From positions 32,001-96,000 of the forward strand of contig CAWCNJ010000007.1 of the NCBI GenBank assembly GCA_963796955.1: a stretch of 64,000 nucleotides of DNA, read 5' to 3'. The stretch comes from Endomicrobiales bacterium (GTDB lineage: Bacteria; Elusimicrobiota; Endomicrobiia; Endomicrobiales; JALOBY01). The notes below the pieces were generated by a model that worked only from the letters and a program-made list of their open reading frames with translations, did no database searches and was not told where the DNA came from. Both the position numbers and the translations under genes were made by a program. This document shows, piece after piece, positions 1,438 to 44,965 of the stretch (position 1 is the first letter of the stretch; every line of letters starts with the position of its first letter).

Positions 1438-1992
1438 GTGAAGCAACTGGTCGTGGCGCTCATGATACTTGTGCAATTCACTCACGCTTCCGTCGAAGCG
1501 GTGATCTATTCGGATATCGGCTCGGCGCAGGTTTTTCAGCCTGTTTCCTGCGTGGAGCTTTTAAAGATCGTTTGCGGTAATACCGTCGACAGTCTTAAAG
1601 GCATGGCGGCCCTGGTTAATTTGGCTGCTGCCCGGTCAAAAATGCCGTCGCGCCCCGCAAGAGCCCCGGCGCGGAATGCAAGAAATACGGTGGCGATATT
1701 CCAGCCGGTGCGCCCCGGCGAGAACGGGCGAGATCTATCCGTTTCACCGGTTATGGACGAGCGGATGTATGCGCGCGGGAAAGCAGCTTTTAGCATGTTG
1801 CCTGCTGGGGCGGTAGTGTTATTTATAACTGTTTGCATGTTCTTTTTTCGCCGGGAATTACTTGCCTGGCTGGCAGGCTTTGTACATTTTCCCGGTAATG
1901 TCCTACTACTTATTTTCTTCCGGAAAACCCTGATCACCGTTACACGTGGCCGGGGTTTTCAAATTTCGGAGGCGCCATCATGCGGCGGTTAA
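1438..1992 (+). CDS. Hypothetical exported/membrane protein upstream of the giant gene
   Basis: GTG start after AAAGGG, signal-like N-terminus, C-terminal hydrophobic helices; overlaps the giant-gene start by 13 nt. Confidence 0.55.
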   Translation: MKQLVVALMILVQFTHASVEAVIYSDIGSAQVFQPVSCVELLKIVCGNTVDSLKGMAALVNLAAARSKMPSRPARAPARNARNTVAIFQPVRPGENGRDLSVSPVMDERMYARGKAAFSMLPAGAVVLFITVCMFFFRRELLAWLAGFVHFPGNVLLLIFFRKTLITVTRGRGFQISEAPSCGG

Positions 1993-15700: not shown

Positions 15701-18700
15701 GGAAGCTGAGCGGCGGTGATGCGGTGCTCACTATTTCAATTGCCGCAGACGGCGTATACGGCGTAAGGTTTACGGATATCATAAATGCCGATGTGAACGG
15801 CGTCGATCAGAAGATCTACTTTGGTCCGGATGGCACGGCCTACGGCCTGGACCGTTCCGTGGTCGCGGCCGCCGAACAAAAACACGACGGGATACTGATA
15901 CTTGCCGGCCAGGCGAATGGTTTGTCGGTCAAGAACGTAGGGCCTGCTAACGGTAAGGGAGAGGCCGGTGTTACCGACGAGAAACTCACCGGCGGCGACC
16001 TGGTACTGTATGTCGGCGATAAGTCGTTCGACACATGCGATGTAAGGCTCGCCGGCGTTCAGAACGGCGATCTGGACGGTGAGCATGTAAATATCATGTT
16101 CAAACCCGACGGCACCGCGTACGCCTTCGATACCGCCGCTATCCTCGCATCCAAACAACACGACGGCATTCTTATGCTCGCCGGCGAGGCGGCCGGCTTC
16201 AAAGTGCGCGAGGTCGGCGCGGTCGTCGACGGCCATGCCTCTTTCAGCACCGACTTGCTTACCAGCGGCGACCTGGGTGTAAAGGTCTCCTTTGATCCCA
16301 AAGGCGGCGAACCCGAAGTCAGGCTTGCCGGCATTATAACCAACGCCGAGATAGCCACCAAAATACAAACCGATATAAAACAGACGATCATCTTCGCCAA
16401 CGACGGCACGGCTTATGCCTTTACCGACGCGGCACTTGCGGAAGCGAAGGCAAATCGTGATTCTGCTGCATTCAACAATTTGCCGGCGGTGGTCATGCTT
16501 CGGCAGATGGGCATTCTTGGTGACAATACTAACGCGCATTTCGGAATAACTATCGACGGTGGAGCATCAGATTATGCGGTTCAAATAGTAGGAAAGAGCG
16601 GCATGACGAAGTCGTCGCTGCTGGGCGGCGACATGGTGCTGGAAATAGCGGAGAAGAACGATTCGTACGCAGCACAGGTTTCGGGAATAAATAACGCGCT
16701 TACGCAAGATCATACCTCGGTAAAGGTCTTCCTGTTCGGGAATAATGCGTATGCGCTCCTCCCCGAGCTGGATTTACCGGACGCAAAAAACGTCATGGTA
16801 GATTCACAGGGTAATCTGGTGGTCATGAGCCAGGATCAGGCTGGCAAAGCGTCCGCGGTATTAATAGACCATGAAGGCAACCAGACCGCTATTAAAGATG
16901 TGTACGCAGATAACGCCTGGATCACGACGGGATTGAAAGCCGCGGGAATAGGTGAAGACGTAAACGGTCTTATGTTGATATACAAAGCCGTCAGAGGAAA
17001 AGATGGGGCTCCTGATAAATGGGTGTCTATGTTCGTGCATCCCGTCGGCGACGGATATTTTGCGGAGCTGCAAAAATACACCTGCAACGACGGTTCGGTG
17101 ATATTTGAGTCTCAGGGTAAATCACGGTCGTTATATAAAGTAAATACGTCCGCCGATGGAACACAATCACTGGGCTTTATTCTCTCCGGATCGTATTCGT
17201 CAACCAGTGAAGGGGACACGGTCAGAAAGCAATTTGATGTTAATGCAAAAGACGGCAGCGTAACTTCCGATCTGTATGTTCAACGCGGCGCTGCCGGTTT
17301 ATCCGATGATGTCTTCAAAGATAAATACGGCACTATTCTAAACGAGGTTAAGATCAAGGGTATACTAAAATCAGATAGCGAAGGTTTCATCGCTAAAACA
17401 GTAAGCGGTTATGGCCTAGAGTTCAAAGGCGATGATGTTGTCGGCGCGTTTACGGGTGACTTGGATGTTAAAAACGGGAAGAGTAAGATCCATTACAGCT
17501 TCGGCTCGGATGGTATGTATCTTGGGTCAGTAGTTACCACAACCAGGGCGATCCCCGGCACGGCCGCGTATTATGTCACAACAGTCACGTACGACTATGA
17601 TGATAAAAAATCAGCTCCTGTTTCTGTGTTGAAGGGCAATATGGGTATCACGGGCATCTATACTGATCCGACCGGCAAACAGTATATTTCAGGCACCCTT
17701 GTTATAGATAAAGAGACCGGTCGTATAGACGTCGCCAACGGTGTTGGCCGTAGAACGGAACAAGGTATCCTCGTTGAATTTACCACCGACAAAAACGGCA
17801 GGGAGCGGGTTGTGCGGACATACGGGCCTACCGGGATAGATACTGATGTCAGAGCACAAAATTCTTATACGACTTACGCAAATGGACGGTCTTATGACCA
17901 TACACAAAACGCTTCAGGTTTCGGCAACTTTACCACCCCTGACGGCTCAGTATATACCAGCGGCAATGTCATAGTGGTGAACGGCGAATTGCGCGTAGGT
18001 GATGGCGATTGTACGTCATTCATGGGCAAGGGTAGTTTAGCCCTGACCGGCAAGAGCGATAGCCAGGGTAACGCGAGCTATTCGTGGATATCAGGTACCT
18101 ATCACGGCAAAGCATTAAATACCGAGCTGGTGCCGCTCAGCGGCGGTGGATATCAGATATTTGACGCTACTATTTTCAATGGCGACTGGTTCTCAAGCGT
18201 AGACGGAATGACTGATATAGATTTCACCATGGTTGGTTTGAAACAAGTAACCGTCGGTACGAAGGAAAATGCAAAACAAGTATGGATGTTTGAAGTCGGC
18301 ATCATCGGCAAACAAGATCAGGATTTCAATGGTGTGAACATGCCGCGCCAGGGCGTAGCGGGCGGTAATACTATCGCTCCTGTACCCAGCGGGGAGGAAT
18401 CGGAATTTGGATTGCAGCGTGAATTGTTGGTGACCACGGGTGATTATAACCGCTTTACAAAGAGTGCAACGATCAATATTACCGCAACGAGCGGCAATGT
18501 CGCCTTTAAAGCCGATATCCCTGTAGATTCTGCTCAAGATGGGCATATAAAATCCCTTACCTTCAGCGGTTTTGAAGAGGGGACGCGCGTCAGGATGGGC
18601 AAGGGCGGGCTGCAGTACGAAACGCAATACGCCGGTCAGGGCTTGCTTGCCTCCGGCTATCGCGATATTACCGAGGGAACGTACATAGATATACATATCC

Positions 18701-21700
18701 CCGGCAGCCTTGACGCGAATATGGCGTATACCATCGGCACGGTGAACGATCATTTCACCCTTACCGCTATGTCTAATCCCAATGGCACCGGTAAATCCCT
18801 TGGCGATATCACGGTGCTTGACAGAACGTTTGTTGACGGCAAGATTACCAGCTACGTATCAAGCAGCAGCAGCGATGATGTGTTCTATGGCGAGTATACA
18901 GTAGGCACTGTCCGTGTAGATCTTAAGAGCGCTGGGTTTGCTTCCACCAATATTTCTCCTTTCACTGCCGCCGGCGGTCATCTGCTGGGCGCTGTCGCTA
19001 ACGGAGTTGGCGCTGTTTGGAATGGCCTCCTCGCCGCCTGGTACACATATAAGAGCGATTCTGTATCTGCAAAACAGGCAGAGGAAATGTCCTCTCTCAT
19101 GGGAGCTGCTGCAATTGGTGATGCGGTCGGCTTTATCAACTCCTTGGGTAAGATCGGGGAATCCATAGGTGACTCGGCAGCAATACTTGCACAAGCGTTT
19201 AATTCTTGGACCAGCAATTGGAGCAATTGGTATGAGGGTGACAATGCTGCCGAGGTTAAGGCATATCATATGTCGCAGCTTAGGAACGACGGTATTATAA
19301 GCACGGTGGTCGGCCTTTCAATTGGCCTTAAAGACGCGGCGAAGGGATTTAGCTACGCATTGGTAGGCGGTATCGCGAGCAAGTTTGGCAGCGGGTGGGG
19401 CGTCGAAACTCTTGCAGAAGGGCAGTTGCTTTTCAGAGAAAGTTCTGTTGTTGAAGGTGCTATTAAAGGCGCTACCGTTGGGTGGGGTGTGGTAACCAAT
19501 GTCTCAAGCCGGGTCTGGGGTGGGGTCCTGTTCTTGGGTGGTATGCTCAATATGGCGTATGCGGAATACGATAATTTTAAACGGGCGTTGAAAGTTTCGA
19601 TATACAATGCGCTCATGAACGGTACGTTTGCGTTTAACATGGACGTTGATCTGAATGATGAAAATGCGCAGGCTGGGCATGATTGGATCACCGAAGGCAC
19701 TAATAGAATCTATGGCGAGAAAAATCTGTCTGACGATTCATTCGCCTTACGTTCGTCCGCGCGGTTGTGGGTTAGCACGGCATTTGTTGCTGTGTTAGTA
19801 ACCGGTGCCATCATGGCTATTGAAGCCGTTGCGACAGCGGCTACATCCGCAGTAACATCGACTGGTTCAATGATAAAGGCCGGATCATCTTTGTTAAATG
19901 CCGGACGGATAGTATTGTCCGATGCGCTAACCGGCGCTTATACTAATGCGATCGTTGATACCGGTCTTAGAATAGTTAAGGGTGAAGATGTGACCGTTGG
20001 AACGATAGTGAGCGCTTTTGTCAGCGGTGCGATCCTGGCCGGTGGTATGTCGTTGGGAGGCAGACTTGCCGGTTTTGTTGCGAACAACGTTAAATTTGGT
20101 GTGCAGGCCGCTACCCAAACACTTGCCGAAGGGGCTGCCGTTTATGCAAAGAGTGGGGGATTGTTTGCAAGCATTGGTGAACAAAGCTTGGTAAAAGCTG
20201 GTTCGATTACAGAAATAGGAGCCATACTTACTGCCAGAGTATTTAATAGTTTGAGTATATGGGTCGCCGGAGCTATAGGCAAACTAGGTGCTCTTGCCGC
20301 GAAGGGTGAAAAATTTGTTACCGCTGAGGCGATCTGGGGCATGGCTAAATCCGCGCCGTTGTTCACCTCGATCGAAATCGTTGCAGGTATTGGATATAGG
20401 ACATTGTTCAAGGGCATGTCATATGACTCAGCGCTTGCTGACCTGGGCGGCTATAATGGTATTGCCACCAAGTTCCTTACCCAGCCGCTTGAGTTTGCTG
20501 CCATGGGCATCACTCTCGGATTTATGATGCAGGTGTTCCAGGCTTCTAACCTAGTAACCAGAGCATTCTTTGGTAACCGTACTTTTGGCCCCGCGCTTGA
20601 ACTGTTCTCCACACGGCACACGTTTGGAAATTTATTCGATTCTATATCGGTATTGTTTGGCACAAAAACAGCCGCGGAAATAAGTGAAATGATGTTGCAG
20701 AACCTTGCGAAAGAAGGAGGCGCTGGTATTGCATTTATCGGTCATGCCGAAAGCGCGGCATTTACAGCCGCATCATTGTGGCTTGGCGAACAGGCCGGCT
20801 ACATTGTCGGCAGACAATTGGGTCTGAAAGGTCGGGACCTGGAAAAATTTGCCAGTGATGTGGCCTTCTACAGCCTTATGTTCATTCCTAAATCAACCGC
20901 TGATCCCAGCTATGCAGTACATGAAGTGCTCTCGCGCAGGGTCATAGATGCTGCTGGTAGAAGCGAGGAGGGTATTCAGGGGCTGCAAGTTGCTTTAGCG
21001 CTGGCACCTGACGCTGCTGCAGCACGCGATGTGCTGAGGCGGTATGATCCCACTCTAAATAAAGATTCATTAACTCCAGAATTGGTGGACCATTTACAGA
21101 CAAAACTTTCTGAAACGTCTGCACGTGACATTATTGTGCTTGGTTCTGTTGATGCCGCAGGCGCACAAGCCAAGGCAAACGAAGTGTTGCTTGCTAAAGA
21201 TGGTACGAAGGTTGATGGATATGTGGTGACCGAGGCATTGAAACGGGCAGCCATTGATCTGACCATTGAAGGAGCGCGCGAAAGTGTTTCTGCCGAAATT
21301 GCTGGCATGGGATTGCACACTGGTGATCCGGAAAGAGCGATTGACGAATGCCTTGAACGCCTTGGTTCGATTGTTCAAGACAAATCTAATCCAATTCGCT
21401 CATTGGCCGCAATAGCCATCGGACGTGAATGGTCTGATCTAAAGACGGCCGTCGGCCGCCTTGATATGCTCGCTGGAACAAATCTGGATATGGCTGCAAA
21501 GATCAGGGAGTTATATCAGGAATGGACCACCTCGTTATTAACAGGTGAACCGCTTGAGAATAACGCGGATTTAGCGCAATTAGTATCAGAGGTTTTCAAG
21601 CTTGCCTCGGAGAAAACAAGAATTGCCTTAACAGCAAAAATTGATAAGGCAACCGATCCAAAAGTCGTCAGAGATTTGACACAACAACTTAATAACCTGA

Positions 21701-24700
21701 CCGAGGCGGAAAAATCTACAGACTTTGCATCGCAGTTAGCTGTTTTCCATACGGATATGTTCCTTGTAGCAGACCGTGTGGTAGATTTTGACCGGAAGCC
21801 GCTGATCGACAGAATCGTTGATAACGCTAAGGATTGGAAGAGACAAAGTGATTCGGACCGTCTAAAAGCATTGAGCAATTATATTGAATCGGTCTATAGA
21901 GAAAGTGGTGTAAAGCTTAGCCAGAAGCAAAGAACATTGGTTTTTGAATTGAACGACAAACTCAAAAGGGGTGAAGATCTAACAGAAGCTGACCTTCAGG
22001 ATATTGCAGCCTGCGAGTCGCTTAGACCGGAAAAGGCCGGCGGTGCTAAATGGGGAGACAGCACTCCTAAACAGAGGGTTGAGTCATTGGTTAAATACCT
22101 CGATGATGCGATGCCATTAAATATTGAACAGCGTGCCCGTATTGATGCCCTGATCAAAAAAGGTGGCAGCTTAACTGAACTTGAACGGGCAGAGGTTCTG
22201 GACCTTGAGTCCAGGCGTGCAGCTGAAATGCTCGGGATCATACTTGGAGACAGGATACGTGAAGTAGGAACAAAGAATTTTACAGCTGAACAAAAAACCC
22301 GTCTCAGCGAACTTATGCGGAAATCCGGCGAAAGTGGTCTTACTGCGGAAGAGTTGTACGAATATAAGCGCCTTGAAACGTTGATGGAATACAATTTGCC
22401 GTCAGGTTTCGGTACGGCGGCAGTCACACTGGGCGATTTCTATGAGGGGCAATATGATGCATTTGCCAGTATTTTCAAGGCAATGATCAATGGTGAGAAA
22501 ATGGAGGGTGATACACTTTCCCGTTATGCACACCAGCTGCGTACTGCGGGTGGCAAGACAGTGATTGGGCTGTTCACCGAAATGCTTCTGGCTACCAGCA
22601 AAACGGCAACGAACAAATGTATCGGGTGGCTCACGAATACTGATGCCAATGCCCGTGATCTGGGTGCGCATTCCAGAATTATATTTGGTAATTCACTGGG
22701 CAGGGTATTGGTCCTTGATGGTGTGACACTTGAGAGAATGAAAAATAACGGCACACTACGCACAGAACTTGAAAAAGCTGATATCATTATAACAACATAC
22801 AATTCAATGAGCAGCTTGTATTCATCTTCAATGGCAAAATTGATCTCCTATGCTGACACTGACGCAAAAGGCAAGGAGATCGCAGAGCATAATATTGCAT
22901 TGTTGAAAACTGCTGAGCCGCCGATATTGACATCAAAGGATGCAAACGGGAAAATTCAATTAGCAAACGCGGCGGATTCCAGGCGTGCGATTGAGTGGCT
23001 TGCAAAGAATGGCGGGCTAGGGCTTGGGGAAACCGATCTGCCGTTGACACGGCTTGGGGATTTGATAGCTGACGAACTTGACTATTTGGGCACTATACCA
23101 ATGTCGGCACTTGCTTCATCCACCGGCAAGTATTACACAACCGCCCGGCCTGTTGAATATTATGCAGAATTGATGCGGATAAAAGAAACTAATAGATCGC
23201 TCAGCGATGATCTTGTTAGAACGCTGTTGGAGAAGTTCGCCGACATGGGTTTAAGCGAACAGATGCTGCGGATAGATTTTGGAGCTCCTGAAACTCTTAA
23301 AGGGAAGATGGAATTTTACGAAACACTATCCGGAGAAGTAGAACGTGCTACTACAAAAGCAAAAGGTGAAGACGGTAAGGTTACTGATCGTAGTGTCCTG
23401 AGTGATGCTGATATCAACAGTCTGGTCGATCGGTTATCTGATAGAGCAAAAGAACTTGGCCTCGACGTAGCGGAAGTAAGAAAAATGGTTGTTACACAGA
23501 TCGACAACCTGTGCAAAGATTCTTATGTACGGAATTTTTTAGCACCTAAGCTGCTTGATCTGGCAATGCGAACGCAGGCACCGGATAAGGGTATGTCAAC
23601 TATTAAGGGCAATCGGTCTGCTGAAACGAATCCGGTTGATAAAGATCCACGCGACCCTCGCGCCATGGGCCAGGACCGGCGTATGGGAGGAATATTAGTC
23701 GATGGCAAGCTGGTAGAGACCGTTGATCCTGCAACAAAACCAGATACAGAGACTCCTAAGGCTGAAACGAAAGGACACATCGCTCCTGATAAACTGAAAG
23801 GAGAGATCGATGCTCTTGTCGATCAGGTTCTCTCTAAATTCGGTAATTTGTTTAATGAACGCGAAATTCGTGAACAAATTAGTGGCGGTATGTCAGCAGC
23901 CGAAATGTTCTTGAAAACTGGTATGGAATACGATCCTAAAACCGGAAAATATAAGAAAAGAGAAGGCGGAGCACGCGTGGGTGAAGGTTCATATACTGTG
24001 CAAGGAGAAGGCGATAGCCGCCGTATCATTATTACCAATGATGGAAAAGGTGTCGAAAATCTGACGTTACCTGGTATGGCAGTTCTTGAAGCCTTAGAGC
24101 ATATTACGAATTTGACGCGTCCAACTAAAGAAACTTTTGTATCCAACAGCGTTGAGGCGATGAATGCGTGGGGCAACATCGTTGGATTCTCTGGCACATA
24201 CAGCGATTCCATAAAGGGTCTGTTAAAGACAATGGAATTTACTGAGGGTGGTGCTGCACCCACCGGCGTGAAAGTAGGCATCTATTCAGTACTAACCACT
24301 ACACAGGAAGCGATAGCTAAGGTTATAACTGAAGCGGTGAAAACTGTAGAACGTAGCGGTAGGGCTTCGATCAATTTGATCCTGACAAGTGGCTCTCATG
24401 CAACCGATCTTATGGTTGAAGAACTCAGAAAGAATGGAGTGGCTGAAGACGATATTGTAAGCTTAACGCTTACTAATATCAATCAGCAACTGTACAAATA
24501 TGGCCAAAAAATTGAAGCAATGCGAGAGGCGATCAGGTTTGCCGCAACTGATGAGGCACGCGTGGTAGCTGAAAGATCATATAACGCATACATCAAAGGA
24601 AGTGAATTAACAGATACTGATATAACAAAAATTACCTCCCAGGCTAATATTGCGGATATATCGCTCGATGAGAAAACATCTTTGCTAACAAAAGTATTAT

Positions 24701-27700
24701 CTGGTGAAACGAAGACAGGGTCGGCCAAATACGTTATTGGTGACGCCTACCTGCTTGGCCGCGGATGGAGCGTGGGCAGAATGGGAGATGCAGCCAATAA
24801 CCTGAAGGATTCATTCTTCAAGAGCTACACGCCAGAAAATGCAGATCTTCAATTGTCTCAATTCGGTGAAAAAATGCGTGAAATGAGATCGGCAATTGAA
24901 AATGCGACGACGCCAAAGGAAAAAGATGCGGCTGAGACGGCCTATAAGTCATTTGTTAAAGCTGCTAAACTTACTGATGTTGAAATCGCTACGATCGATG
25001 CGCCGGAATCCATTACTAAATTGTCTGATGCTGACAAAAAAGATCTTCTGGTAAAACTTCTGAAGACCGATTTGGTGCAGGCGACGATGTGGCTGGTAAA
25101 TGTGGACAAGTTCACCGCGACGCAGCTGGAGCAGGGATTAGGGCGTTTTGACCACTATGGCGACAGCCGCTTTGATCGTGAATTCTTCAATAAGGAGATC
25201 GTGCAAATCACGTCAGTTGAATCTGCTCGGGAGAGCGTGACGCTACGAGAAGCGGCAAAGACGAATCGCGGTTGGAATATCGATTTGATCATCAACAATA
25301 TGAAAGACGTGATGACCGCAAATGAAAAAGCTTCTCTTGAGAAAGCCGGTCAAAAGGTCTTGACCAGCGCATCTACGGAAAAAGCCGACTCGAAACCAGT
25401 TAGTCCGATCGAAGCACTGGGACGATTGCCGGAATCTGAACGTAAAACGGTGAAGGATGGTTTAGATACGACACCTGGTATGACCTATCATGCGGGAGGA
25501 GTAGCCTGGCTTACCGCAAAAGGACAGACCTATATCAGCAATGTAGCTGCGTTGAGAAACGGTGCGGTTCCATCTGGTAGTCAAGTTGTCTTATCGCCCA
25601 TGAATACCGCCCTGGTTGCCTTCTTCGGAGCGGCTGATATATTAGGTTTTGAGCAAGTTTCCGTTATCAAAGGACTAGAACTTACAGACAACACACCCAT
25701 GGCCGTCTCAATCGCACTCTATCTCGCAAAGAGTGGTTTAAGTCTCTCAGCGATCGTAGATATTGGCATCGCGTTACCTGTACTCAACACCGGTGGAGTA
25801 ACCATTGCTTCCGCCGACATCAAGGCTGCGCTTGCGTATCGTTATCCACCCGATGTAACACAGATTATGGCACACTATGGTGTTGCCCTGCCTCCTGCGG
25901 CGGTCTATAAATTGCTACAACCTAATGCCGGTAAATTACCTGCCCCGGTGAAGAAACAGATCGCCGTAATTGAAAAAGCGATCGCGGTGACCGAGAAGTT
26001 GAAGGACAGTGGCAGCGACAATGTATTAAAGAAACTGTACAGAGGCCTATTCACGGCTCGTCCGATAAATGTTCTTAAGAAACAACAAAAAATGTCGTTT
26101 GCCGAAATTATAGAATTAGCACAAGAAACAACGGGAGCCGGTGGAAAAACTCCTGCAATCGCTGAAGTTATTCAGTCCCCGGACTTTGCACTATTGGCGG
26201 CACTGCTGGGAGTATCAGATGCTTGCAAAGTAACCGGTGTCCTGCAATCGCTTAATAACCTTGGATTGAGTGGACAGTTTAATGTCTTAAAACCGGCAGA
26301 AATAATGGCTTATCTGGCCGGCCACATTACGTCTACGGACCTTATCAGCAAACTATCGCTGGGAAAACCAAAGAGCCTACCGATCAGAATGATCAATTCT
26401 CTTGTGGAACGTTTGCACCTTCTCGCGGCGTACGGTTCATCCCTGCTTGGTGTGGATCTTAACGCCACTCCGGTAGATATTTTGAATAGGCCGGTAAATC
26501 TCAGGATAGGTGATGCTGCCAAGTATCTTAAGGAAATTCAGGGCCAGTCAGTGCAGCAGGCAACACAGGCTGAACTGATGAAAGGCCTTGGCGCCATCGG
26601 GCAAGGGCCGGATGCAATGGCCAAACTTCAGCAGGTGCAGGCTGATGCCGCGGCTGCCGCTCAAAAGAATTTCTCGTTTACTATGGCTGATATTATTGCG
26701 GTAGCTGAAAAAAACGGCCTTTCAGATGAACAGGTACTCTCGATAGTGAATATCTCTTTTTCAAAAGAAGATCGGGCGAAAGTCTTGTCATTCTATAAAT
26801 CTGCGCAGTATATCCCGGGCTACGGCCCGCAGTTTGCTGCCACGCTAACTCTTGCGCAGCTTAGCGATCCTCAGTTTGATATGGATAAGGCTTACAAGCC
26901 CTTTGGCGACTCTTATGTGCAGGTACACAAAAAGGAGAACGGCGAATTCGGTGGTTCTCTTGTCGGTGCGTTGGACAACTTCATAGGCAACGGTAAAGGC
27001 ACAGGCGCTGCTCACACCGGCAAGTCTGCGGATCAGCTTATTAAGGAATTCCTTGAAACGCCGGCTGGTTACGCGGCGAAGGCAACGCTGCTTGATTACC
27101 TTCGTTCTAAAGGTATGCAGATAGCTGCCGCGGCTTTAACGTCTGGGCTTACAGGTTCTACTGTGTTGAACCCGCATGTTGAGGCCGCTTTGAAACAGTT
27201 AGATATCGTAGGGCAAGTTATCTCTGACGCTGTAGACCCCAATGACAAAGAAAAGGCAGCCAAGCCGAAAGCTCCCGGCAAGCCTATCTCAGAGAATGTT
27301 AAGCAGATGATAGTCCAGTTGCAGGATATTATTCAACTGGCCGCGTCATACGGCATAAATGATCTCAGCCCGGAAGATATATTAGATGTCTTAAAAGCCG
27401 CCTACCCTGCCGGCGTTGCTGAAAAATTCCAGCAAAACGGTCTGTCATTGCCGCCTGCGCCGGTCTTGTCCCTTCTGCGTCTGATGGGCGCAAGATCTAC
27501 CGGCCTTAAAGGTAATCTGCCTACGATAATCGCCAAATATGATGAAGCGATAGCCGCGGTGACGAAAGAAGTTGAGCCGCCCAGTACCACGGCGCGCGCT
27601 ATTAAGGCCATAAGAAAGGGCCAGAATATTTCTGTTCAGGAATTGTTGACAATGGCAACAACCCTGGCTTCGGGCAAGGATGCAGCGAACGCCAGCGCAG

Positions 27701-30483
27701 CGCCGAAGTCAATTGCAGTTGTAGCCACCCTGTTCGGTATAAAGAATGTTAACTCAGTGGCAGCCGTAGTAGAGGGATTGAAAGCACGGGGTGTCGATCT
27801 GGACCTTATTGATCTGTCTCAATTAAATTCATATCTTGATGGTGAGACACCGTCCCTGGACTTTGTTTCCAGACAGGCGGACGGCACTATAAACGGCTCT
27901 GTCGCTCAGCTGATAAATTCCCTGCTGGATATGATTTACGGCACGTTCCGTCTGCCGGTAAGCCTTAAGAACAAGCTGTTCATAGGCGGGGGAATTATAG
28001 GTAAGGGCGGTAACTACGACCTTCATGTAGTTACTAACTCCCTTAAGGATATTCGCGACGAAGCTCTAAGCCCGAGGGTGAAAGCCGCCATAGCGAAGGA
28101 TCCGGAAGCAACGAAAGACCGTACGGCTCTTTGGGCGCGGGAACGGAAGAATTATCAGTTCACGGTAGCCGATATCGCCAATGCCGCCGCGCAAAACCGG
28201 GTGCCGCCCGAAATCATACTTTCCATCTTGAATATTTCGCTTACGCCGCAGGAACGGCAACTTGCTGTTAAAAACATTAAAGCTGTACAAAGATTGCCGG
28301 AAGGTATTGAGTTCGCGAACACTCTGACGCTGGCTGAGATCACCGATCCGAAATTTACTGATGTGTCGGCTCAAAAGACGCTTCTTGCCCGCAAGCATAT
28401 TCAGCAGCTGCCGGACGGCACCTTTACGGGCTCCCTGGTCGCGGCTCTTGACGGTTATATCGGGAATGGTTCTCAGCAGTTGAGCATAAGCCCTGCAGTA
28501 ATTACAAGATTGATAGCCGAGTATCTTGCCTCAAGCCAGGAAGCATTTGCCGGTAAGCAGACCATAATTAATTTTGTGATGTCCCGGCTTGGTGCCTTAG
28601 ATAAGCCTGCAGCAGCGACCGCCCTTACGCCGGCTCAGCGCAGCATGTCAAAGGCCCGCATAAATGCACTGGGTGAATTCACTGACGGTATAAGCAGTAT
28701 CGATGAAGCTGTTGCCTTGGCTAAGCCAGCCATGCCCATGGCCGCGATAAAACCTGTTACCGTAGACCTGAAGCATGTGCTTACCAAGAGTCGCGAGCTT
28801 GCGCCCCTGTATAAGGCGGCGATCACCGCGCAAACAAGGTACAATGCTGTCGTTGGTGATAAGCCGGTAACGCCTGAACAGATAAGTAAAGCTAAAGCCG
28901 AATGGGAAGCCGCTGAGAAGGCGAAAGATCCGAAAGCAGATAGCCTGAAGGCGGAATTCAAGAACTTGGAACTTACATTTACCACACAACAAGCGGTTAA
29001 TACGGAATATAAGAATGCCGTTGATGCCTATTACGCCGCGAGGAATAAGTACCAGAACGCGACCGAAGCGCCGGCCATCGATGTTGCTGCGGCACCGGCT
29101 CCCACGGTGGCGGAGCCGGCTGTGACTCCTGTAGTGGCCGCATCACGCGTACCTTCCGCCAAGCTTAAAGCTTCCATTGAAGATCAAATGGCTGCCAGAT
29201 CCAATAAAGCTCCGAAAGCGAAAGTCGCGACAGCTGAAAAGCCTTCCGTAGCGCCGGTCCAAGCCGTTGCCGCAGCAGCTCCCTCTGCCGCCCAGGCTAT
29301 AACCCGCACTGTCGCTGCCTCCGGATTGACGGCCACAGTGGCACAACAACTTGCAGCCAAATCTAAGTCTGCCGACAAAGCTGCACCGGCGCCGGTCATC
29401 CTTGCTTCGAACAGGCATGCTGCCGCCCCTGTCGCTCAGGCGGAACCACCGGTCACTTCAGCATCCCCGGCGTTATTGCCCGCGTCTGAGGCGTCGCCGT
29501 TAACAGCCACTATCGCCGAGCAACTGTCGGCAAAGGCTCCCCAGAAAGGTTTGATCACAACAAAAGGAAGATCTGCAAAGAAGTCCCAGTCAGAACTTGC
29601 CGTTCATAATCTTGGGCTTGAAGCTGAGCGTGTGATGGTTGGTCCTCTGCCTGGTATTCCCGATCTGACCGGCCTTGCCACCGTTGCGGCGAAAGAAATT
29701 GAAACGCGGGCAGGGCGTCTCTTGGAAGACCGCGTGAATAAGGCCGTTGTTGACCGGCTTGTAAAACATGTTGAAGAATTGGTTACCGCTAAAAACGGTA
29801 TTGCCGGCGAACCGTTCACCGATCCCGCCGTTGGCACAGGGTATTCGTTCCCTAAGAACGACAAGTGGGAAATGTTCGCTTTTGATATGACAATGCTTGC
29901 GGGAGGCGAAGACAATGTTCCCGCGAAGATCGAATCAATTGTGAGCAAGCACGCTCTTGCGGAAAAGTTATTATTCGCGTTTGGCGAAAATGATGAAAAG
30001 AATTCTATAAGCGCTCATTTTGCTACAAGATCTTTAACGGTCGGCGAAGCAACACACACCTATCTGATCATAGTTCGTGAGTCAGTTGACCCCATCGGTC
30101 CGGCAAATTACGAAGCGGTTGCAAAGATCCAGGAAAAACTGTGGTCCGGAAAAGTAATCGATACTAAATTCGGCAACTCTCCTTTCTGGATGGCGAACTA
30201 TGGAGTGTTGAAAGACGGGCGCGTCGTTCTGGTAAATCCGGATGTTCTTGCACAGATCGATCCTGTCGCCAACGGCCAGGGGAATGTCCCGCTGCCCAGC
30301 CTGATACCGATGAACCCGGAAATAGCCGGTTTGGCGCAAGGTCCCAACTACAATGTTTTCGGTCGCGGCGACATGCACCGTGATCCGCTTGGTGATGCGG
30401 CCAGAAGAGCCGCGAAATACTTTACCGGCGACCAGGGTTCAGATAAGAACAATCTGAACAGGATGTTCAAACTTGCCGCATAA
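9724..30483 (+). CDS. Giant protein, part 2: C39 peptidase, hydrophobic segments, beta and Pro-rich repeats, SecA-like ATPase, helical duplication, possible pseudokinase
   Basis: 6919-aa ORF whose frame is open from 9631, with no convincing RBS before GTG 9724. C39 triad at 9961/10243/10291. SecA-like motifs TAGGKT, DELD, GFSGT, GRG, QGLGR. Confidence 0.88.
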   Translation: MVHAASSDSTTVVTYITNKLAEFLTDTPAQQAAFLASLGLDMTTLMSLGLSLDQIAAYIATNSQSIIAYLTSQGSQIFNCAVDSLGNLIGAGTDKNGLAENIILVDIMTGSLSVQASQGLNDPIQFSALAIQQTAALYGIKLTGFSTDITGLTQAAAGGKPVVVQVTNSSGQGHFVVVTSITNGIVTYKDNDGTVKTMKVADFQNVWSGVILSQDQIAGDNVSRLSLLQTQQIMGASGNPITYVVRGLNAAGSYVVHTVTHAIAHPLDTIKTVQADISKVQDDIVAVAKKTWDIAGKVWTGITSKSTYQAIGTWIKHAADTIHHGTVETFKATWKLTKAIGNFFAAFGDLFTGDWSGFKSRMGGAWTNLTQSVGQVLSGAAEIVVGSIAITSIVAPLAVGIARACGSNWMNNNWNGIVKYGKGVVIVVAAIIIIYFTGGAGATVFGSTMLASACAATAVAVAVSVSAQMAFNHGNINYNQLGKTAVIAFASSIAMAGAGTLGQASTFWGQVAVSAARGAVIAGVTNIGSQLITTGHINWTKVALAVGIGAAQGAANGAMNYEVRISPSLQASSWYTAAWEGAVRGAVNSFISDMITEGIYDRKLHGYRILRDMGEGGVKGGVEGSLQGADDGKGGRTGGLFSKLNQSSDVAGKIFAGTFSGFATGTADYFAKCLIEWQAPDANGIKGAMMGGMFNGLISTALATRTYVPGGAPQPGSAYGIDGWLNGDNTLGFVVGTVLNTAGSFLASYISGAAVFYSTAGARGSYNDYLRGTDDGATGNRFEVMMAGSVEQALTSSIAESFARFDEAHVKYFEGKSLADHVNNLVGDETYKDPKTGTIYHSDAYIDFDARSGSFFIIAGHVDYKTPSGSVVTATYEDGGIVKAGDDTFNDYTALGNRYCGFALVPTTSDDQRVILLSGPIDAPTFVNGYDTPTYRLGLSANGKLSDLLTFNGSNGWSVDLQVNERSAQSPIPGKIFVTRAEDGSFNVFSLDPETGNPVDAGTISEDQLKESHGRVKLAGRLDGTAAEAVTTDLLGHTITRQDKFDAGDIIIHITPDAAGGGFVASFKGEVENAKIKGDYVHVTYGGGKFYALDGDAAEVGIANADNNLDLKGQGDGAIARVRGARRPVTTTDEGTDDLAAALDEILPGDGPATDGNTGESGGHIRATIRKSATPSAPAPDAGTPDGQPQPAPEATPSAPVPPVVRTDGVLALANTQGSTGIDPVSDLLDQLFPTPVTEGGPVNDQPPVTKNDANAPFEPLPGENTGDGSGAPTIVPHALRQVTPARSATADEDQPPVPPAETNPGAVPPAVENGGVLALGSPTSNLDAANIVDQLLTLAPAADTLPDQPPAAKDDTPPSAETLPGDKPGNGDSGPLTPHVLRQAPPAPTATTGEPPQPIVPDQPFVDGPIPDSVKTDGVMAFGNPGGNGDLLSYVEDQVVTTPPVSGGPAPVADTAEDQPPKDKDVVPPSAGPLPGDNAGAGESGPITAHAFKQTTPMRTPDAGEPPQLVLPDETLFGPDVPDTVKTDGVLGVGNPGGNGGLISYVEDAVVTPPVSAGPAPVSDAPEEPPTPPEAAPRAPEQLAMGPAGVLPPVGTQPSGLNTAPPPIAGSGSDEELMNAAVDDHSDTFTDETLTHADVRLKVTRGSDGTISVSYVGLVNASIDGVPQTIYYGPTGMAYAFDNPTLAGAAANGGRLVLKNQAPGMGVHHVGPLDDNGNADTSDDTLTGGDLVLRVSANNDGTFGVRFGGVENARIGGSDQTLCFRPDGAAFSLDNSFLEKYHGSSITLNDQATGFGVRTANGDKTLTGGDMVLRLSGSGPDGFNVRFAGFDGAEIDGVAFKTCQMTNGSYYAFNNTSMADAFDNNKGMLVLKDDGKGFGVEKVGALVNGKAVATSETLTAGDSAFKVTKNYDGTFDVRFATIQNAKIGDVSETLAFGRPDGVVYALNDDLLQEVIPHGKDHGNLVIADQGKGFAVQLAGPVGADGRSTVTSGKLSGGDAVLTISIAADGVYGVRFTDIINADVNGVDQKIYFGPDGTAYGLDRSVVAAAEQKHDGILILAGQANGLSVKNVGPANGKGEAGVTDEKLTGGDLVLYVGDKSFDTCDVRLAGVQNGDLDGEHVNIMFKPDGTAYAFDTAAILASKQHDGILMLAGEAAGFKVREVGAVVDGHASFSTDLLTSGDLGVKVSFDPKGGEPEVRLAGIITNAEIATKIQTDIKQTIIFANDGTAYAFTDAALAEAKANRDSAAFNNLPAVVMLRQMGILGDNTNAHFGITIDGGASDYAVQIVGKSGMTKSSLLGGDMVLEIAEKNDSYAAQVSGINNALTQDHTSVKVFLFGNNAYALLPELDLPDAKNVMVDSQGNLVVMSQDQAGKASAVLIDHEGNQTAIKDVYADNAWITTGLKAAGIGEDVNGLMLIYKAVRGKDGAPDKWVSMFVHPVGDGYFAELQKYTCNDGSVIFESQGKSRSLYKVNTSADGTQSLGFILSGSYSSTSEGDTVRKQFDVNAKDGSVTSDLYVQRGAAGLSDDVFKDKYGTILNEVKIKGILKSDSEGFIAKTVSGYGLEFKGDDVVGAFTGDLDVKNGKSKIHYSFGSDGMYLGSVVTTTRAIPGTAAYYVTTVTYDYDDKKSAPVSVLKGNMGITGIYTDPTGKQYISGTLVIDKETGRIDVANGVGRRTEQGILVEFTTDKNGRERVVRTYGPTGIDTDVRAQNSYTTYANGRSYDHTQNASGFGNFTTPDGSVYTSGNVIVVNGELRVGDGDCTSFMGKGSLALTGKSDSQGNASYSWISGTYHGKALNTELVPLSGGGYQIFDATIFNGDWFSSVDGMTDIDFTMVGLKQVTVGTKENAKQVWMFEVGIIGKQDQDFNGVNMPRQGVAGGNTIAPVPSGEESEFGLQRELLVTTGDYNRFTKSATINITATSGNVAFKADIPVDSAQDGHIKSLTFSGFEEGTRVRMGKGGLQYETQYAGQGLLASGYRDITEGTYIDIHIPGSLDANMAYTIGTVNDHFTLTAMSNPNGTGKSLGDITVLDRTFVDGKITSYVSSSSSDDVFYGEYTVGTVRVDLKSAGFASTNISPFTAAGGHLLGAVANGVGAVWNGLLAAWYTYKSDSVSAKQAEEMSSLMGAAAIGDAVGFINSLGKIGESIGDSAAILAQAFNSWTSNWSNWYEGDNAAEVKAYHMSQLRNDGIISTVVGLSIGLKDAAKGFSYALVGGIASKFGSGWGVETLAEGQLLFRESSVVEGAIKGATVGWGVVTNVSSRVWGGVLFLGGMLNMAYAEYDNFKRALKVSIYNALMNGTFAFNMDVDLNDENAQAGHDWITEGTNRIYGEKNLSDDSFALRSSARLWVSTAFVAVLVTGAIMAIEAVATAATSAVTSTGSMIKAGSSLLNAGRIVLSDALTGAYTNAIVDTGLRIVKGEDVTVGTIVSAFVSGAILAGGMSLGGRLAGFVANNVKFGVQAATQTLAEGAAVYAKSGGLFASIGEQSLVKAGSITEIGAILTARVFNSLSIWVAGAIGKLGALAAKGEKFVTAEAIWGMAKSAPLFTSIEIVAGIGYRTLFKGMSYDSALADLGGYNGIATKFLTQPLEFAAMGITLGFMMQVFQASNLVTRAFFGNRTFGPALELFSTRHTFGNLFDSISVLFGTKTAAEISEMMLQNLAKEGGAGIAFIGHAESAAFTAASLWLGEQAGYIVGRQLGLKGRDLEKFASDVAFYSLMFIPKSTADPSYAVHEVLSRRVIDAAGRSEEGIQGLQVALALAPDAAAARDVLRRYDPTLNKDSLTPELVDHLQTKLSETSARDIIVLGSVDAAGAQAKANEVLLAKDGTKVDGYVVTEALKRAAIDLTIEGARESVSAEIAGMGLHTGDPERAIDECLERLGSIVQDKSNPIRSLAAIAIGREWSDLKTAVGRLDMLAGTNLDMAAKIRELYQEWTTSLLTGEPLENNADLAQLVSEVFKLASEKTRIALTAKIDKATDPKVVRDLTQQLNNLTEAEKSTDFASQLAVFHTDMFLVADRVVDFDRKPLIDRIVDNAKDWKRQSDSDRLKALSNYIESVYRESGVKLSQKQRTLVFELNDKLKRGEDLTEADLQDIAACESLRPEKAGGAKWGDSTPKQRVESLVKYLDDAMPLNIEQRARIDALIKKGGSLTELERAEVLDLESRRAAEMLGIILGDRIREVGTKNFTAEQKTRLSELMRKSGESGLTAEELYEYKRLETLMEYNLPSGFGTAAVTLGDFYEGQYDAFASIFKAMINGEKMEGDTLSRYAHQLRTAGGKTVIGLFTEMLLATSKTATNKCIGWLTNTDANARDLGAHSRIIFGNSLGRVLVLDGVTLERMKNNGTLRTELEKADIIITTYNSMSSLYSSSMAKLISYADTDAKGKEIAEHNIALLKTAEPPILTSKDANGKIQLANAADSRRAIEWLAKNGGLGLGETDLPLTRLGDLIADELDYLGTIPMSALASSTGKYYTTARPVEYYAELMRIKETNRSLSDDLVRTLLEKFADMGLSEQMLRIDFGAPETLKGKMEFYETLSGEVERATTKAKGEDGKVTDRSVLSDADINSLVDRLSDRAKELGLDVAEVRKMVVTQIDNLCKDSYVRNFLAPKLLDLAMRTQAPDKGMSTIKGNRSAETNPVDKDPRDPRAMGQDRRMGGILVDGKLVETVDPATKPDTETPKAETKGHIAPDKLKGEIDALVDQVLSKFGNLFNEREIREQISGGMSAAEMFLKTGMEYDPKTGKYKKREGGARVGEGSYTVQGEGDSRRIIITNDGKGVENLTLPGMAVLEALEHITNLTRPTKETFVSNSVEAMNAWGNIVGFSGTYSDSIKGLLKTMEFTEGGAAPTGVKVGIYSVLTTTQEAIAKVITEAVKTVERSGRASINLILTSGSHATDLMVEELRKNGVAEDDIVSLTLTNINQQLYKYGQKIEAMREAIRFAATDEARVVAERSYNAYIKGSELTDTDITKITSQANIADISLDEKTSLLTKVLSGETKTGSAKYVIGDAYLLGRGWSVGRMGDAANNLKDSFFKSYTPENADLQLSQFGEKMREMRSAIENATTPKEKDAAETAYKSFVKAAKLTDVEIATIDAPESITKLSDADKKDLLVKLLKTDLVQATMWLVNVDKFTATQLEQGLGRFDHYGDSRFDREFFNKEIVQITSVESARESVTLREAAKTNRGWNIDLIINNMKDVMTANEKASLEKAGQKVLTSASTEKADSKPVSPIEALGRLPESERKTVKDGLDTTPGMTYHAGGVAWLTAKGQTYISNVAALRNGAVPSGSQVVLSPMNTALVAFFGAADILGFEQVSVIKGLELTDNTPMAVSIALYLAKSGLSLSAIVDIGIALPVLNTGGVTIASADIKAALAYRYPPDVTQIMAHYGVALPPAAVYKLLQPNAGKLPAPVKKQIAVIEKAIAVTEKLKDSGSDNVLKKLYRGLFTARPINVLKKQQKMSFAEIIELAQETTGAGGKTPAIAEVIQSPDFALLAALLGVSDACKVTGVLQSLNNLGLSGQFNVLKPAEIMAYLAGHITSTDLISKLSLGKPKSLPIRMINSLVERLHLLAAYGSSLLGVDLNATPVDILNRPVNLRIGDAAKYLKEIQGQSVQQATQAELMKGLGAIGQGPDAMAKLQQVQADAAAAAQKNFSFTMADIIAVAEKNGLSDEQVLSIVNISFSKEDRAKVLSFYKSAQYIPGYGPQFAATLTLAQLSDPQFDMDKAYKPFGDSYVQVHKKENGEFGGSLVGALDNFIGNGKGTGAAHTGKSADQLIKEFLETPAGYAAKATLLDYLRSKGMQIAAAALTSGLTGSTVLNPHVEAALKQLDIVGQVISDAVDPNDKEKAAKPKAPGKPISENVKQMIVQLQDIIQLAASYGINDLSPEDILDVLKAAYPAGVAEKFQQNGLSLPPAPVLSLLRLMGARSTGLKGNLPTIIAKYDEAIAAVTKEVEPPSTTARAIKAIRKGQNISVQELLTMATTLASGKDAANASAAPKSIAVVATLFGIKNVNSVAAVVEGLKARGVDLDLIDLSQLNSYLDGETPSLDFVSRQADGTINGSVAQLINSLLDMIYGTFRLPVSLKNKLFIGGGIIGKGGNYDLHVVTNSLKDIRDEALSPRVKAAIAKDPEATKDRTALWARERKNYQFTVADIANAAAQNRVPPEIILSILNISLTPQERQLAVKNIKAVQRLPEGIEFANTLTLAEITDPKFTDVSAQKTLLARKHIQQLPDGTFTGSLVAALDGYIGNGSQQLSISPAVITRLIAEYLASSQEAFAGKQTIINFVMSRLGALDKPAAATALTPAQRSMSKARINALGEFTDGISSIDEAVALAKPAMPMAAIKPVTVDLKHVLTKSRELAPLYKAAITAQTRYNAVVGDKPVTPEQISKAKAEWEAAEKAKDPKADSLKAEFKNLELTFTTQQAVNTEYKNAVDAYYAARNKYQNATEAPAIDVAAAPAPTVAEPAVTPVVAASRVPSAKLKASIEDQMAARSNKAPKAKVATAEKPSVAPVQAVAAAAPSAAQAITRTVAASGLTATVAQQLAAKSKSADKAAPAPVILASNRHAAAPVAQAEPPVTSASPALLPASEASPLTATIAEQLSAKAPQKGLITTKGRSAKKSQSELAVHNLGLEAERVMVGPLPGIPDLTGLATVAAKEIETRAGRLLEDRVNKAVVDRLVKHVEELVTAKNGIAGEPFTDPAVGTGYSFPKNDKWEMFAFDMTMLAGGEDNVPAKIESIVSKHALAEKLLFAFGENDEKNSISAHFATRSLTVGEATHTYLIIVRESVDPIGPANYEAVAKIQEKLWSGKVIDTKFGNSPFWMANYGVLKDGRVVLVNPDVLAQIDPVANGQGNVPLPSLIPMNPEIAGLAQGPNYNVFGRGDMHRDPLGDAARRAAKYFTGDQGSDKNNLNRMFKLAA
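13150..14570 (+). repeat. Pro/Asp-rich tandem protein repeats (~105 aa, about 4 copies)
   Basis: (D/G)GV(L/M)x(L/F/V)(G/A) cores at 13345, 13666, 13975 and 14308; recurring DQPP and LPG(D/E) motifs. Confidence 0.8.
14617..16770 (+). repeat. Beta-rich protein repeats (~80-120 aa, 8 copies here plus one at 12847)
   Basis: LTGGD-type motif units start at 14617, 14893, 15133, 15409, 15697, 15976, 16249 and 16609, followed by VRF..NA.I.G...F.PDG.AYA-like sequence. Confidence 0.8.
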
Positions 30484-31742: not shown

Positions 31743-32732
31743 ATGTATTATACGGATAAGCTTCAACAGCTGGTAAAACTGTTCGGTACCACGGAGCTCT
31801 CCATCCAGCCGGATTCCCTTACCGTTAAGGGTGTAACATATCCGGTTATCGACGATGTCATAATTTTATCTACGGAAGCCGAATATACTCCTTTCACAAG
31901 AAAACGGCTGGCAGCCGGCCCTTCCACCGGCACGGCCGACATCGCCCTGGATATTCAGGCGACCTTCGGCGCGGAATGGCGAGAATATTCGGGGATATTA
32001 CCGGAACACCGTACAGAGTTCTCACAATATTTCGATATCGTGGATATGCCGGCCCTGAAAGATGCAACGGTGCTGGACGTGGGTTGCGGCAGCGGCAGGT
32101 GGAGTTATTTTCTTAAGGACGCATGCCGCCGGCTGGTGCTGACCGATTTTTCCGACGCGATATTTGTGGCTCGCGAAAACCTGCGCGGTAACACTGACGC
32201 GCTGTTTTTTATGTGCGACCTGCGCAAACTGCCTTTTGCGGATAACAGCGTAGATTTCTTGATGTGCCTGGGCGTGCTGCACCATCTGCCGGTGCCGTGC
32301 CTTGATGAGGTGCGAAAATTTAAACGTTTTGCGCCTAAAAATCTGATATTTTTGTATTATGCCCTGGATAACCGGCCTTTTTATTTCAGGGTTATTCTTT
32401 CGCTGGTCACCGTGGTGCGCACGCTGTTGAGCACGGTCACCGCGCCGCGGCTGCGCAGGGTACTGTCTGTGGCCGGCGCCGTGGGATTATATATGCCGCT
32501 GGTAACCCTTGGGCGGGCGGCCGACCTGGTGTCTCTTGGAAAATACGTGCCGTTATATGAATTTTACCGCGGAAAAAGTCTGGCCCGTATCGAACAGGAT
32601 GTGTACGACAGATTTTTTACCCGCATTGAACAGCGAGTCTCTAGAGAGGAAATACTGACGCTGGAAGATACGTATTCCCGCGTCACGGTTGCCGAAACAA
32701 TTCCATATTATCATTTTGTCTGTGAAAGGTGA
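31743..32732 (+). CDS. Class I SAM-dependent methyltransferase
   Basis: VLDVGCGSGRW, LPFADNSVD, CLGVLHHL; Trm112-like YPVIDDVIIL near the N-terminus. Confidence 0.85.
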   Translation: MYYTDKLQQLVKLFGTTELSIQPDSLTVKGVTYPVIDDVIILSTEAEYTPFTRKRLAAGPSTGTADIALDIQATFGAEWREYSGILPEHRTEFSQYFDIVDMPALKDATVLDVGCGSGRWSYFLKDACRRLVLTDFSDAIFVARENLRGNTDALFFMCDLRKLPFADNSVDFLMCLGVLHHLPVPCLDEVRKFKRFAPKNLIFLYYALDNRPFYFRVILSLVTVVRTLLSTVTAPRLRRVLSVAGAVGLYMPLVTLGRAADLVSLGKYVPLYEFYRGKSLARIEQDVYDRFFTRIEQRVSREEILTLEDTYSRVTVAETIPYYHFVCER

Positions 32733-32740
32733 GGGAAACA

Positions 32741-42704: not shown

Positions 42705-44965
<2,261 letters not shown>

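Follow-up and report, generated by a model that had tools for sequence, protein, structure and literature searches.

The window analysed here is a 64,000-nucleotide stretch of an Endomicrobiales genome (assembly GCA_963796955.1, contig CAWCNJ010000007.1, positions 32,001 to 96,000), and all coordinates below refer to it. On its plus strand lies a giant open reading frame (ORF; 9724..30483, +) which encodes a protein of 6,919 amino acids (aa) from a GTG start, the open frame itself comprising 6,950 aa. Within this protein, a module of approximately 970 aa (22438..25344, +; residues 4239-5207) very probably represents an ATPase derived from SecA. A sequence-only reading had described the stretch 22438-25173, which is in frame within the single ORF 9724..30483, as an embedded, divergent SecA-like DEAD motor. 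The nine motif strings on which this proposal was based are all present at the positions given for them, inside the one ORF, and the proposal itself found support, albeit only by sensitive methods (profile-profile comparison, language model and structure). The start of the module at 22438 was confirmed. Its end had been set too early, as the conserved module runs about 170 nucleotides further to approximately 25344.

The motor, whose features are all encoded on the plus strand, has two RecA-like domains that carry, in this order, the superfamily 2 (SF2) motifs Q, I, Ia, Ib, II, III, V and VI, and two alpha/beta domains are visible in the AlphaFold2 model of the motor. Part 1 of the first RecA-like domain (22438..23112), recognized by its motifs and predicted strands and helices, comprises the Q motif (22438-22473; FYEGQ starts at 22438, which corresponds to residue 4239), the Walker A motif (22531-22569; HQLRTAGGKT ends at 22560 and includes Lys 4278), motif Ia (22621-22662) containing LTNTDANARD, motif Ib (22777-22809) containing ADIIITT, and motif II with the sequence DELD (23071-23082; residues 4450-4453). 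Motif III reads GFSGT (24184..24198) in place of GMTGT in SecA, the longer string IVGFSGT spanning 24178-24198. The second RecA-like domain (24205..25278), likewise assigned by motifs plus predicted structure, contains motif V, GRG (24757-24765), and motif VI, QGLGRFDH (25132-25155), in which His 5144 is located at the position where SF2 motors have Arg.

Relatives of the motor were collected with a 1,040-aa segment (residues 4201-5240), which was compared with 1.84 billion representative proteins. Including the window's own protein, 34 proteins matched at E<=1e-3 and 16 at E<=1e-30; the longer proteins among the latter are either very large or fragments at contig ends. A first alignment (A1) consisted of the window and one typed segment each of nine proteins, without P0004, which is almost identical to P0003 across much of the motor. 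A second one (A2) contained 21 sequences, namely the window, a segment of P0005 and 19 distinct loci from genome searches; 100% duplicate loci, partial-module loci (L007, L021, L022, L027, L033) and the A1 rows P0003, P0008, P0011, P0012 and P0013 were not part of it. Although the A2 relatives are only 24-41% identical to the window motor, many of their residues are invariant. In the numbering of the segment, to which 4200 has to be added to obtain the protein residue, these are Q43; G76-G77-K78; T104, N105 and N109; D250, E251 and D253; G621, G624 and T625; D807; G812-R813-G814; Q937, G940 and R941; and R949 and F950. The invariant columns represent the Gln of the Q motif, GGK of Walker A, TN..N of motif Ia, DExD, G..GT of motif III (its G, G and T being found in 21/21 sequences), GRG of motif V and Q..GR of motif VI, followed by RF. 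A chance match of the motifs was ruled out by this invariance across 21 sequences. Asn 5200 and Glu 5201 close to the end of the module are invariant as well, so that conservation reaches to approximately 25344. Regarding motif VI, the sequence-only reading had noticed the His in place of the second Arg and considered an altered or lost activity. The His is indeed there and turned out to be part of a family trait since the last position of this motif (Q..GR..R in SecA) is occupied by His in ten and by Pro in 11 of the 21 sequences, and by Arg in none. Because the His or Pro stands beside otherwise invariant catalytic residues, an altered chemistry is favoured over decay.

Two regions of the module deviate in size from a plain two-domain core. 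DELD and GFSGT are separated by 367 residues, and an insert of approximately 340 aa (23113..24138) between motifs II and III lies at the position of the SecA preprotein cross-linking domain (PPXD); the relatives carry an insert at the same site. According to the AlphaFold2 model, its first about 260 residues are helical and include a low-confidence loop (segment residues 432-483), and only the last 70-100 residues or so, a beta-hairpin, a helix and a return strand, align to the SecA PPXD. The beta-hairpin and helix SYTVQG..IIITNDG..MAVLEALE (23923..24123) align to the C-terminal part of this domain, the shorter pattern SYTVQG..IIITN..LEALE being located within 23989-24099. For the insert alone, language-model neighbours included SecA_PP_bind clusters at 0.86-0.89, but the first match was a non-SecA one and the result is taken as a lead only. 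The second region concerns a helical unit of about 85 aa which precedes the motif V strand (copy 1; 24466..24723) and occurs again between motifs V and VI (copy 2; 24820..25068). The two copies are 35% identical over 66 aa (E 1e-13), and copy 2 exists in the window only, the nine A1 relatives having gaps at this position. Downstream of the second domain, a single helix of approximately 22 residues (25279..25344) corresponds in the alignment to the beginning of SecA's scaffold helix. Conservation stops about 25 residues past the second ATPase domain, where low-complexity linkers begin in all relatives, and the VIA alignment to Escherichia coli SecA (2fsf_A) ends at chain residue 642. By conservation and structural alignment, the scaffold of the motor module is incomplete, and two-helix finger, wing and zinc tail are absent.

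The relationship to SecA emerged from several types of comparison. By hhalign, A1 matched the SecA of the same genome with a probability of 75% (E 2.5e-5, 163 columns). A2 reached 37.5% (E 3.5e-4, 185 columns) with A3, an alignment of 12 canonical SecA sequences of the same order, 55.5% (E 1.2e-4, 155 columns) with L070, a Pfam-positive motor embedded in another giant protein, and 92.2% (E 5.9e-7, 143 columns) with A4, an alignment of six such Pfam-positive embedded motors from giants of the same order, from which L075 without a Pfam match was left out. A4 in turn matched the canonical SecA of A3 with 99.9% (E 1.9e-32) over 656 columns. By contrast, a RecG control gave 2.9% with A2 (E 0.015) over 51 columns covering only the Q motif and Walker A. 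All the SecA comparisons aligned one and the same block, which reaches from the final part of the cross-linking domain through motif III into the beginning of the second ATPase domain; its stretch up to motif III is SecA-specific. A search of 2,701 frames of the own genome with the A2 hidden Markov model (heuristic filters off) yielded SecA as the best non-self match (E 0.079, two co-linear pieces), RecG scoring E 9.4. In the ESM Atlas, the ten best named neighbours were all SecA_DEAD/SecA_PP_bind clusters, the best at 0.93 with 195/256 shared features. An AlphaFold2 model based on the 21 sequences of A2 (mean predicted local distance difference test, pLDDT, 72.8; predicted TM-score, pTM, 0.67) was compared with the PDB by Foldseek. 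SecA of Thermus thermophilus (2ipc_B) was the best match (E 1.9e-6), ranks 1-4 were SecA, and the top ten comprised nine SecA structures and one DdmD; thus the best structural matches were SecA and not other helicases, and the outcome that the sequence-only reading had named as a refutation did not occur. The TM-scores of 0.29-0.33 by query length are low, which is to be expected because of the large inserts and mobile domains. VIA-align placed SecA at ranks 1, 2 and 4, other SF2 helicases (Hef, Hel308, DEAD-box) following within 1-3 Z units. Judging from the predicted model, SecA leads both structure searches by a small margin over the shared helicase core. Outside the motifs, identity to housekeeping SecA is only 10-16%. 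Sensitive methods are needed here because the negative results obtained with Pfam and phmmer, which are detailed below, are real.

To describe the surroundings of the motor, the remaining giant protein has to be considered. Near its N-terminus a Peptidase_C39-like domain (10099..10362, +; aa 126-213; Pfam E 8.6e-7, 29.3 bits) was detected, which is the sole Pfam match above the curated cut-off in the whole 6,919-aa protein. Kyte-Doolittle hydropathy, a crude scan rather than a topology predictor, revealed a first cluster of strongly hydrophobic, transmembrane (TM)-like segments at 10840..11124 (+; aa ~373-467) and a second one at 19765..20046 (+; aa ~3348-3441), about 800 aa upstream of the motor. 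Weaker peaks are present at aa 5288-5360. The ORF thus contains several TM-like segments, and the motor lies downstream of a hydrophobic cluster. The same arrangement was observed in 11/11 proteins examined, in which a TM-like cluster is located some 300-1,200 aa upstream of the motor and none within it. In the translation of a region between the two clusters (~13230-16715, +), three proline-rich repeats (aa ~1170-1480) and about nine repeats of approximately 85-90 aa with the pattern LTGGD.VL.V...DG.F.VRF.G..NA.I.G (aa ~1540-2330) can be seen. This region is presumably the extracellular part of the giant protein. Downstream of the motor a long internal duplication (25861-29283, +) shows 29% identity over 364 aa (E 3e-32); no Pfam family was found in the duplicated region.

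Directly upstream of the ORF, a second giant gene (1980-9656, +) encodes a protein of 2,558 aa with Peptidase_C39 (E 3.4e-16, two stretches). One module of this protein shares 48% identity over 240 aa with the N-terminus of the motor-bearing giant, and for a further copy the identity is 28%. In the genome, no other motor match to the family profile was found, and the motor-less upstream giant could be a client of its neighbour's motor. Apart from this giant with its C39 modules, the neighbouring genes encode a methyltransferase, Wzy_C/TPR proteins, glycosyltransferases and housekeeping functions. The Wzy_C/TPR pair consists of two adjacent proteins of 756 aa and 790 aa (32729-37372, +) with an O-antigen-ligase-like Wzy_C domain and C-terminal TPR; it follows closely on the giant gene, from which a 339-aa frame without Pfam family and the methyltransferase separate it. 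Neither the 20 kb upstream nor the 32 other window frames scanned revealed a secretion system by Pfam. Several housekeeping genes appear shortened or split (42705-43394, 43823-44812 and 46462-47878, +). The queA frame of 229 aa matches only positions 1-142 of 322 of its profile, tgt (329 aa) matches positions 1-303 of 357, and the SecD region comprises two adjacent frames (46462-47265 and 47273-47878), the second of which, the only one scanned, matches SecD_SecF_C. Frameshifts, assembly errors or real decay could account for these shortened frames. That the giant belongs to the phage or conjugative polyvalent proteins was rejected, as its neighbours are chromosomal housekeeping and envelope genes.

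The distribution of the family was analyzed in 401 genomes of Elusimicrobiota, the window's own included. Matches at E<=1e-3 occurred in 46 genomes. In 20 of these E<=1e-100 was reached, without exception in open frames spanning 1,250-10,611 aa, and two motor-bearing giant ORFs each are present in three genomes (G025, G037, G087). The weaker matches within the phylum (E<=1e-3) are mostly RecG or other giant ORFs. In a species-genome collection, 16 loci were detected, all titled Elusimicrobia, Endomicrobia, Endomicrobium, Ruminimicrobiellum and similar; the metagenomes concerned are of rumen, termite or other origin. One locus is identical to a same-order genome of the phylum sample. By sequence search, the family was thus found only in giant ORFs of Elusimicrobiota. 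One protein, P0003, harbors two motor modules (aa 2258-3218 and 3412-4296).

On the basis of these data, residues 4239-5207 may be read as a remote SecA ATPase homologue that acts as a membrane-tethered engine for handling polypeptide. While the descent from SecA is very probable, our confidence in this combined reading is evenly divided, and the proposal that the motor works in protein export is somewhat more tentative still. ATP hydrolysis by the motor has probably been retained and would take place in the cytoplasm, activity and location both being deduced from sequence, the location because ATP is available only there. The polypeptide handled might be the giant itself, its sister copies or the motor-less giant next door. 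Since the two-helix finger, the wing and the zinc tail are missing, the motor probably does not push chains through SecY in the manner of SecA; the likeliest form would be a clamp, an unfoldase or a gate beside the protein's own transmembrane segments. Approximately 2,400 residues upstream are presumably exported. As they are synthesized before the motor, and as the parts for pushing through SecY are missing, a post-translational role or one in trans is favoured. The earlier guess of a cis-acting translocation motor would agree with a published self-export hypothesis (10.1101/2023.11.21.568195).

A number of results weigh against this interpretation. Some of them concern the kinship with SecA. 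In a 1,400-aa piece containing the motor, no Pfam family at all matched at E<=0.1, SecA_DEAD (PF07517), SecA_PP_bind (PF01043) and P-loop_SecA (PF21090) included, so that the HMMER search suggested by the sequence-only reading was negative for SecA_DEAD and SecA_PP_bind. A six-frame search of the genome with PF07517 (E<=1) yielded nothing in the giant ORF; it detected the canonical SecA with 439.6 bits (891-aa frame, other contig) and gave a weak match in a 723-aa frame. None of 14 relatives matched SecA_DEAD in Pfam at E<=0.01, and three of them matched only the generic families DEAD (20.8-24.5 bits; cut-off 26) and ResIII (22.5-23.3 bits; cut-off 22.5), near or below the cut-offs. Five weaker matches (L039-L043), located in giant ORFs of other families within the phylum, were considered as a bridge to Pfam and discarded, since they too matched only ResIII or DEAD at or below the cut-off. 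A phmmer search of the segment against PDB sequences gave a designed helical repeat only. Using A1 as a profile against PDB sequences, SecA was reached at no better than E 0.028, 2ipc_A of T. thermophilus being the second match with two co-linear pieces, Walker A and DYIVqDGqViIVDEftGR..GLHQAIEAKEG...GMTGT. The deeper A2 profile gave 12 matches at E<=10, dominated by the helical insert and without any SecA. A first AlphaFold2 model, calculated from A1 (10 sequences), was poor (pLDDT 58.9, pTM 0.39); Foldseek found nothing at E<=1e-3 with this model, and SecA came no higher than rank 14, preceded by dynein, DNMT5, AddAB and DdmD. Other results concern the function. The last Arg of motif VI is absent from all 21 sequences, and the parts with which SecA works on SecY, namely most of the scaffold, the two-helix finger and the wing, are missing from the motor. 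Moreover, the motor would be translated after the region to be exported and could give it no co-translational help. Finally, the topology of the giant protein depends on the hydropathy scan alone.

With these objections in mind, other explanations have to be weighed. It is conceivable, though unlikely, that the module is a catalytically crippled relic of SecA that moves nothing and has been retained as a switch sensing nucleotides or as a structural scaffold. The His or Pro at the end of motif VI in 21/21 sequences, the missing scaffold, finger and wing, the large helical inserts and the window-specific duplication between motifs V and VI would fit such a relic. On the other hand, GGK, DExD, GT, GRG and Q..GR have remained invariant at 24-41% identity, which would not be expected for a dead site.

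A little less likely is an extended version of the export reading, according to which the giant protein is a self-contained, Sec-independent export machine that unites a stripped-down SecA motor, its own membrane segments and its own cargo in one chain. Such a machine might thread its own chain or that of the neighbouring giant, thousands of residues long, across the membrane, post-translationally or between sister copies, and the His or Pro of motif VI as well as the helical insert could then be adaptations to working in fusion with a client.

Less probable again is that the module is a generic SF2 helicase or translocase acting on RNA or DNA, whose likeness to SecA merely reflects the shared RecA-RecA core. 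The weak Pfam matches of relatives to DEAD and ResIII instead of SecA_DEAD (3/14, and 3/5 of the weaker giants) point in this direction, as do RecG matches of the family profile at E ~1e-5 in the per-genome searches and the close distance at which VIA-align ranks Hef, Hel308 and DEAD-box proteins behind SecA. However, SecA came first in both structure searches, and the best-aligning region, from the PPXD end through motif III, lies outside the generic core. Furthermore, the RecG control obtained 2.9% compared to 92% for the embedded SecA-like motors, ten out of ten language-model neighbours were SecA, no match to Helicase_C was found by Pfam in the window motor or any of the 14 relatives, and the neighbouring genes are related to the cell envelope rather than to nucleic acids.

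It is hardly credible that the module is an effector which, once delivered into a prey or host cell, disturbs the Sec system of that cell, as the sequence-only reading had suggested in second place. Even though Omnitrophota giants have been linked to predation (10.1101/2023.11.21.568195) and SecA-like helicase-related domains are listed among the effector domains of Amoebophilus (Zhang et al. 2012, PMC3482391), nothing in the analysis indicates delivery, the motor comes after a hydrophobic, membrane-anchoring cluster in 11/11 proteins, the SecY-docking parts of SecA are missing from it, and a secretion system was found by Pfam neither within 20 kb upstream nor in the window.

The preferred reading, a SecA-derived and membrane-tethered engine, has some practical consequences. 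Apart from embedded SecA-like domains, we know of no dedicated engine that has been proposed for the export or insertion of proteins of 5,000-100,000 residues. The motor described here is a cryptic, truncated variant, in another phylum, of embedded SecA domains already described in a preprint. It demonstrates that embedded SecA motors can be invisible to Pfam, so that surveys relying on PF07517 would undercount them, and giants listed as 'C39 peptidase only' or 'no domains' may also carry a motor. The embedded-motor theme is thereby extended to Elusimicrobiota, with relatives in rumen and termite-gut genomes. Moreover, the compact module of about 970 aa with its clear catalytic residues (Lys4278, DELD 4450-4453, His5144) is amenable to expression and assay.

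Among known systems, canonical SecA (PDB 2ipc, 3bxz and 2fsf, and the copy of the own genome) is the closest solved structure according to Foldseek and VIA-align. The genome encodes one canonical SecA (G000:C8, 891 aa) in addition to a single copy of the embedded motor. Both types of protein have the same two RecA-like domains and the same motif order. They resemble each other in motif Ia (TN..NA..D versus TVNDYLA.RD), in motif III (GFSGT versus GMTGT), in a large insert that separates motifs II and III and aligns to the PPXD end with its last approximately 70 residues, and in an insertion site between motifs V and VI, which we take to correspond to the variable subdomain of E. coli SecA. The differences are nevertheless considerable. 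The motor is below every Pfam threshold for SecA, and most of the insert at the PPXD site of the window motor is predicted to be helical rather than a PPXD. Of the scaffold helix only about 22 residues are present; two-helix finger, wing and zinc-binding tail are lacking, whereas the own canonical SecA ends with a zinc tail (CPCGSGKKYKKCC) that is absent from the motor. In addition, the last Arg of motif VI is replaced in the motor family, and the motor sits far inside a membrane protein of 6,919 aa, at residue ~4,240. Accessory SecA2 proteins (4uaq of Mycobacterium tuberculosis; 6t4h and 6sxh of Clostridioides difficile) are free-standing and detected by the Pfam SecA models, while the window motor is fused into its presumed client and far more divergent.

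A similar arrangement has been reported for Omnitrophota, in which most giant genes code for SecA DEAD helicase domains and preprotein-binding domains of a divergent kind (West-Roberts et al. 2023, bioRxiv 10.1101/2023.11.21.568195). These domains are devoid of scaffold and wing, follow transmembrane anchors and occur alongside a normal SecA. As proposed by the authors, they would serve to export the very giant that contains them; similar domains are mentioned for giants of Actinobacteria, while in the passages considered here Elusimicrobiota appear only in a survey of gene lengths (10.1101/2023.11.21.568195). The window protein resembles these giants in that its motor is embedded in a multi-TM protein, comes after TM anchors and lacks scaffold and wing. 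In both cases C39-like peptidase domains accompany the motor, the genome encodes a normal SecA in addition, and self-export is the proposed role. Unlike those domains, which were found with Pfam models, the window family belongs to a different phylum and is invisible to Pfam; its motor is not recognised by the very models that defined the set of West-Roberts et al. 2023. Neither the lost motif VI Arg nor the helical insert is mentioned in the passages of that preprint considered here, supplements aside. Another preprint (10.64898/2026.06.07.730766) distinguishes, among long proteins of Omnitrophota, a PF03412-only group and a PF07517 group, and by Pfam the window protein would belong to the PF03412-only architecture group. 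In a full-text literature search, within whose reach preprint supplements did not fall, no SecA-like motors in giants of Elusimicrobiota were found.

Embedded counterparts also exist in the same order. Canonical SecA was present in 41/41 same-order genomes searched, and eight further giant ORFs of these genomes passed the Pfam cut-off for SecA_DEAD. Seven pieces of those giants were examined (L070-L076; G179:C52, G043:C1, G111:C69, G111:C130, G051:C34, G034:C4), of which six passed SecA_DEAD and three matched SecA_PP_bind, two of them over its cut-off. These near-canonical motors are likewise situated inside very long ORFs (2,859-11,262 aa) and are the nearest detectable profile relatives of the window family (92.2%). 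They align to canonical SecA up to position 798, well past the second ATPase domain, whereas the window family ends just after this domain. The reach of the Pfam-positive motors over 656 columns seems to differ from the statement, made in the preprint on Omnitrophota (10.1101/2023.11.21.568195), that scaffold and wing are missing. According to the consensus line, hydrophobic segments are located after and not before the motor in the Pfam-positive proteins. The order thus possesses two classes of embedded motors, a near-canonical one and the cryptic, truncated one of the window. Their occurrence within one order offers a natural comparison as to which parts of SecA are needed once the motor is fused to its client.

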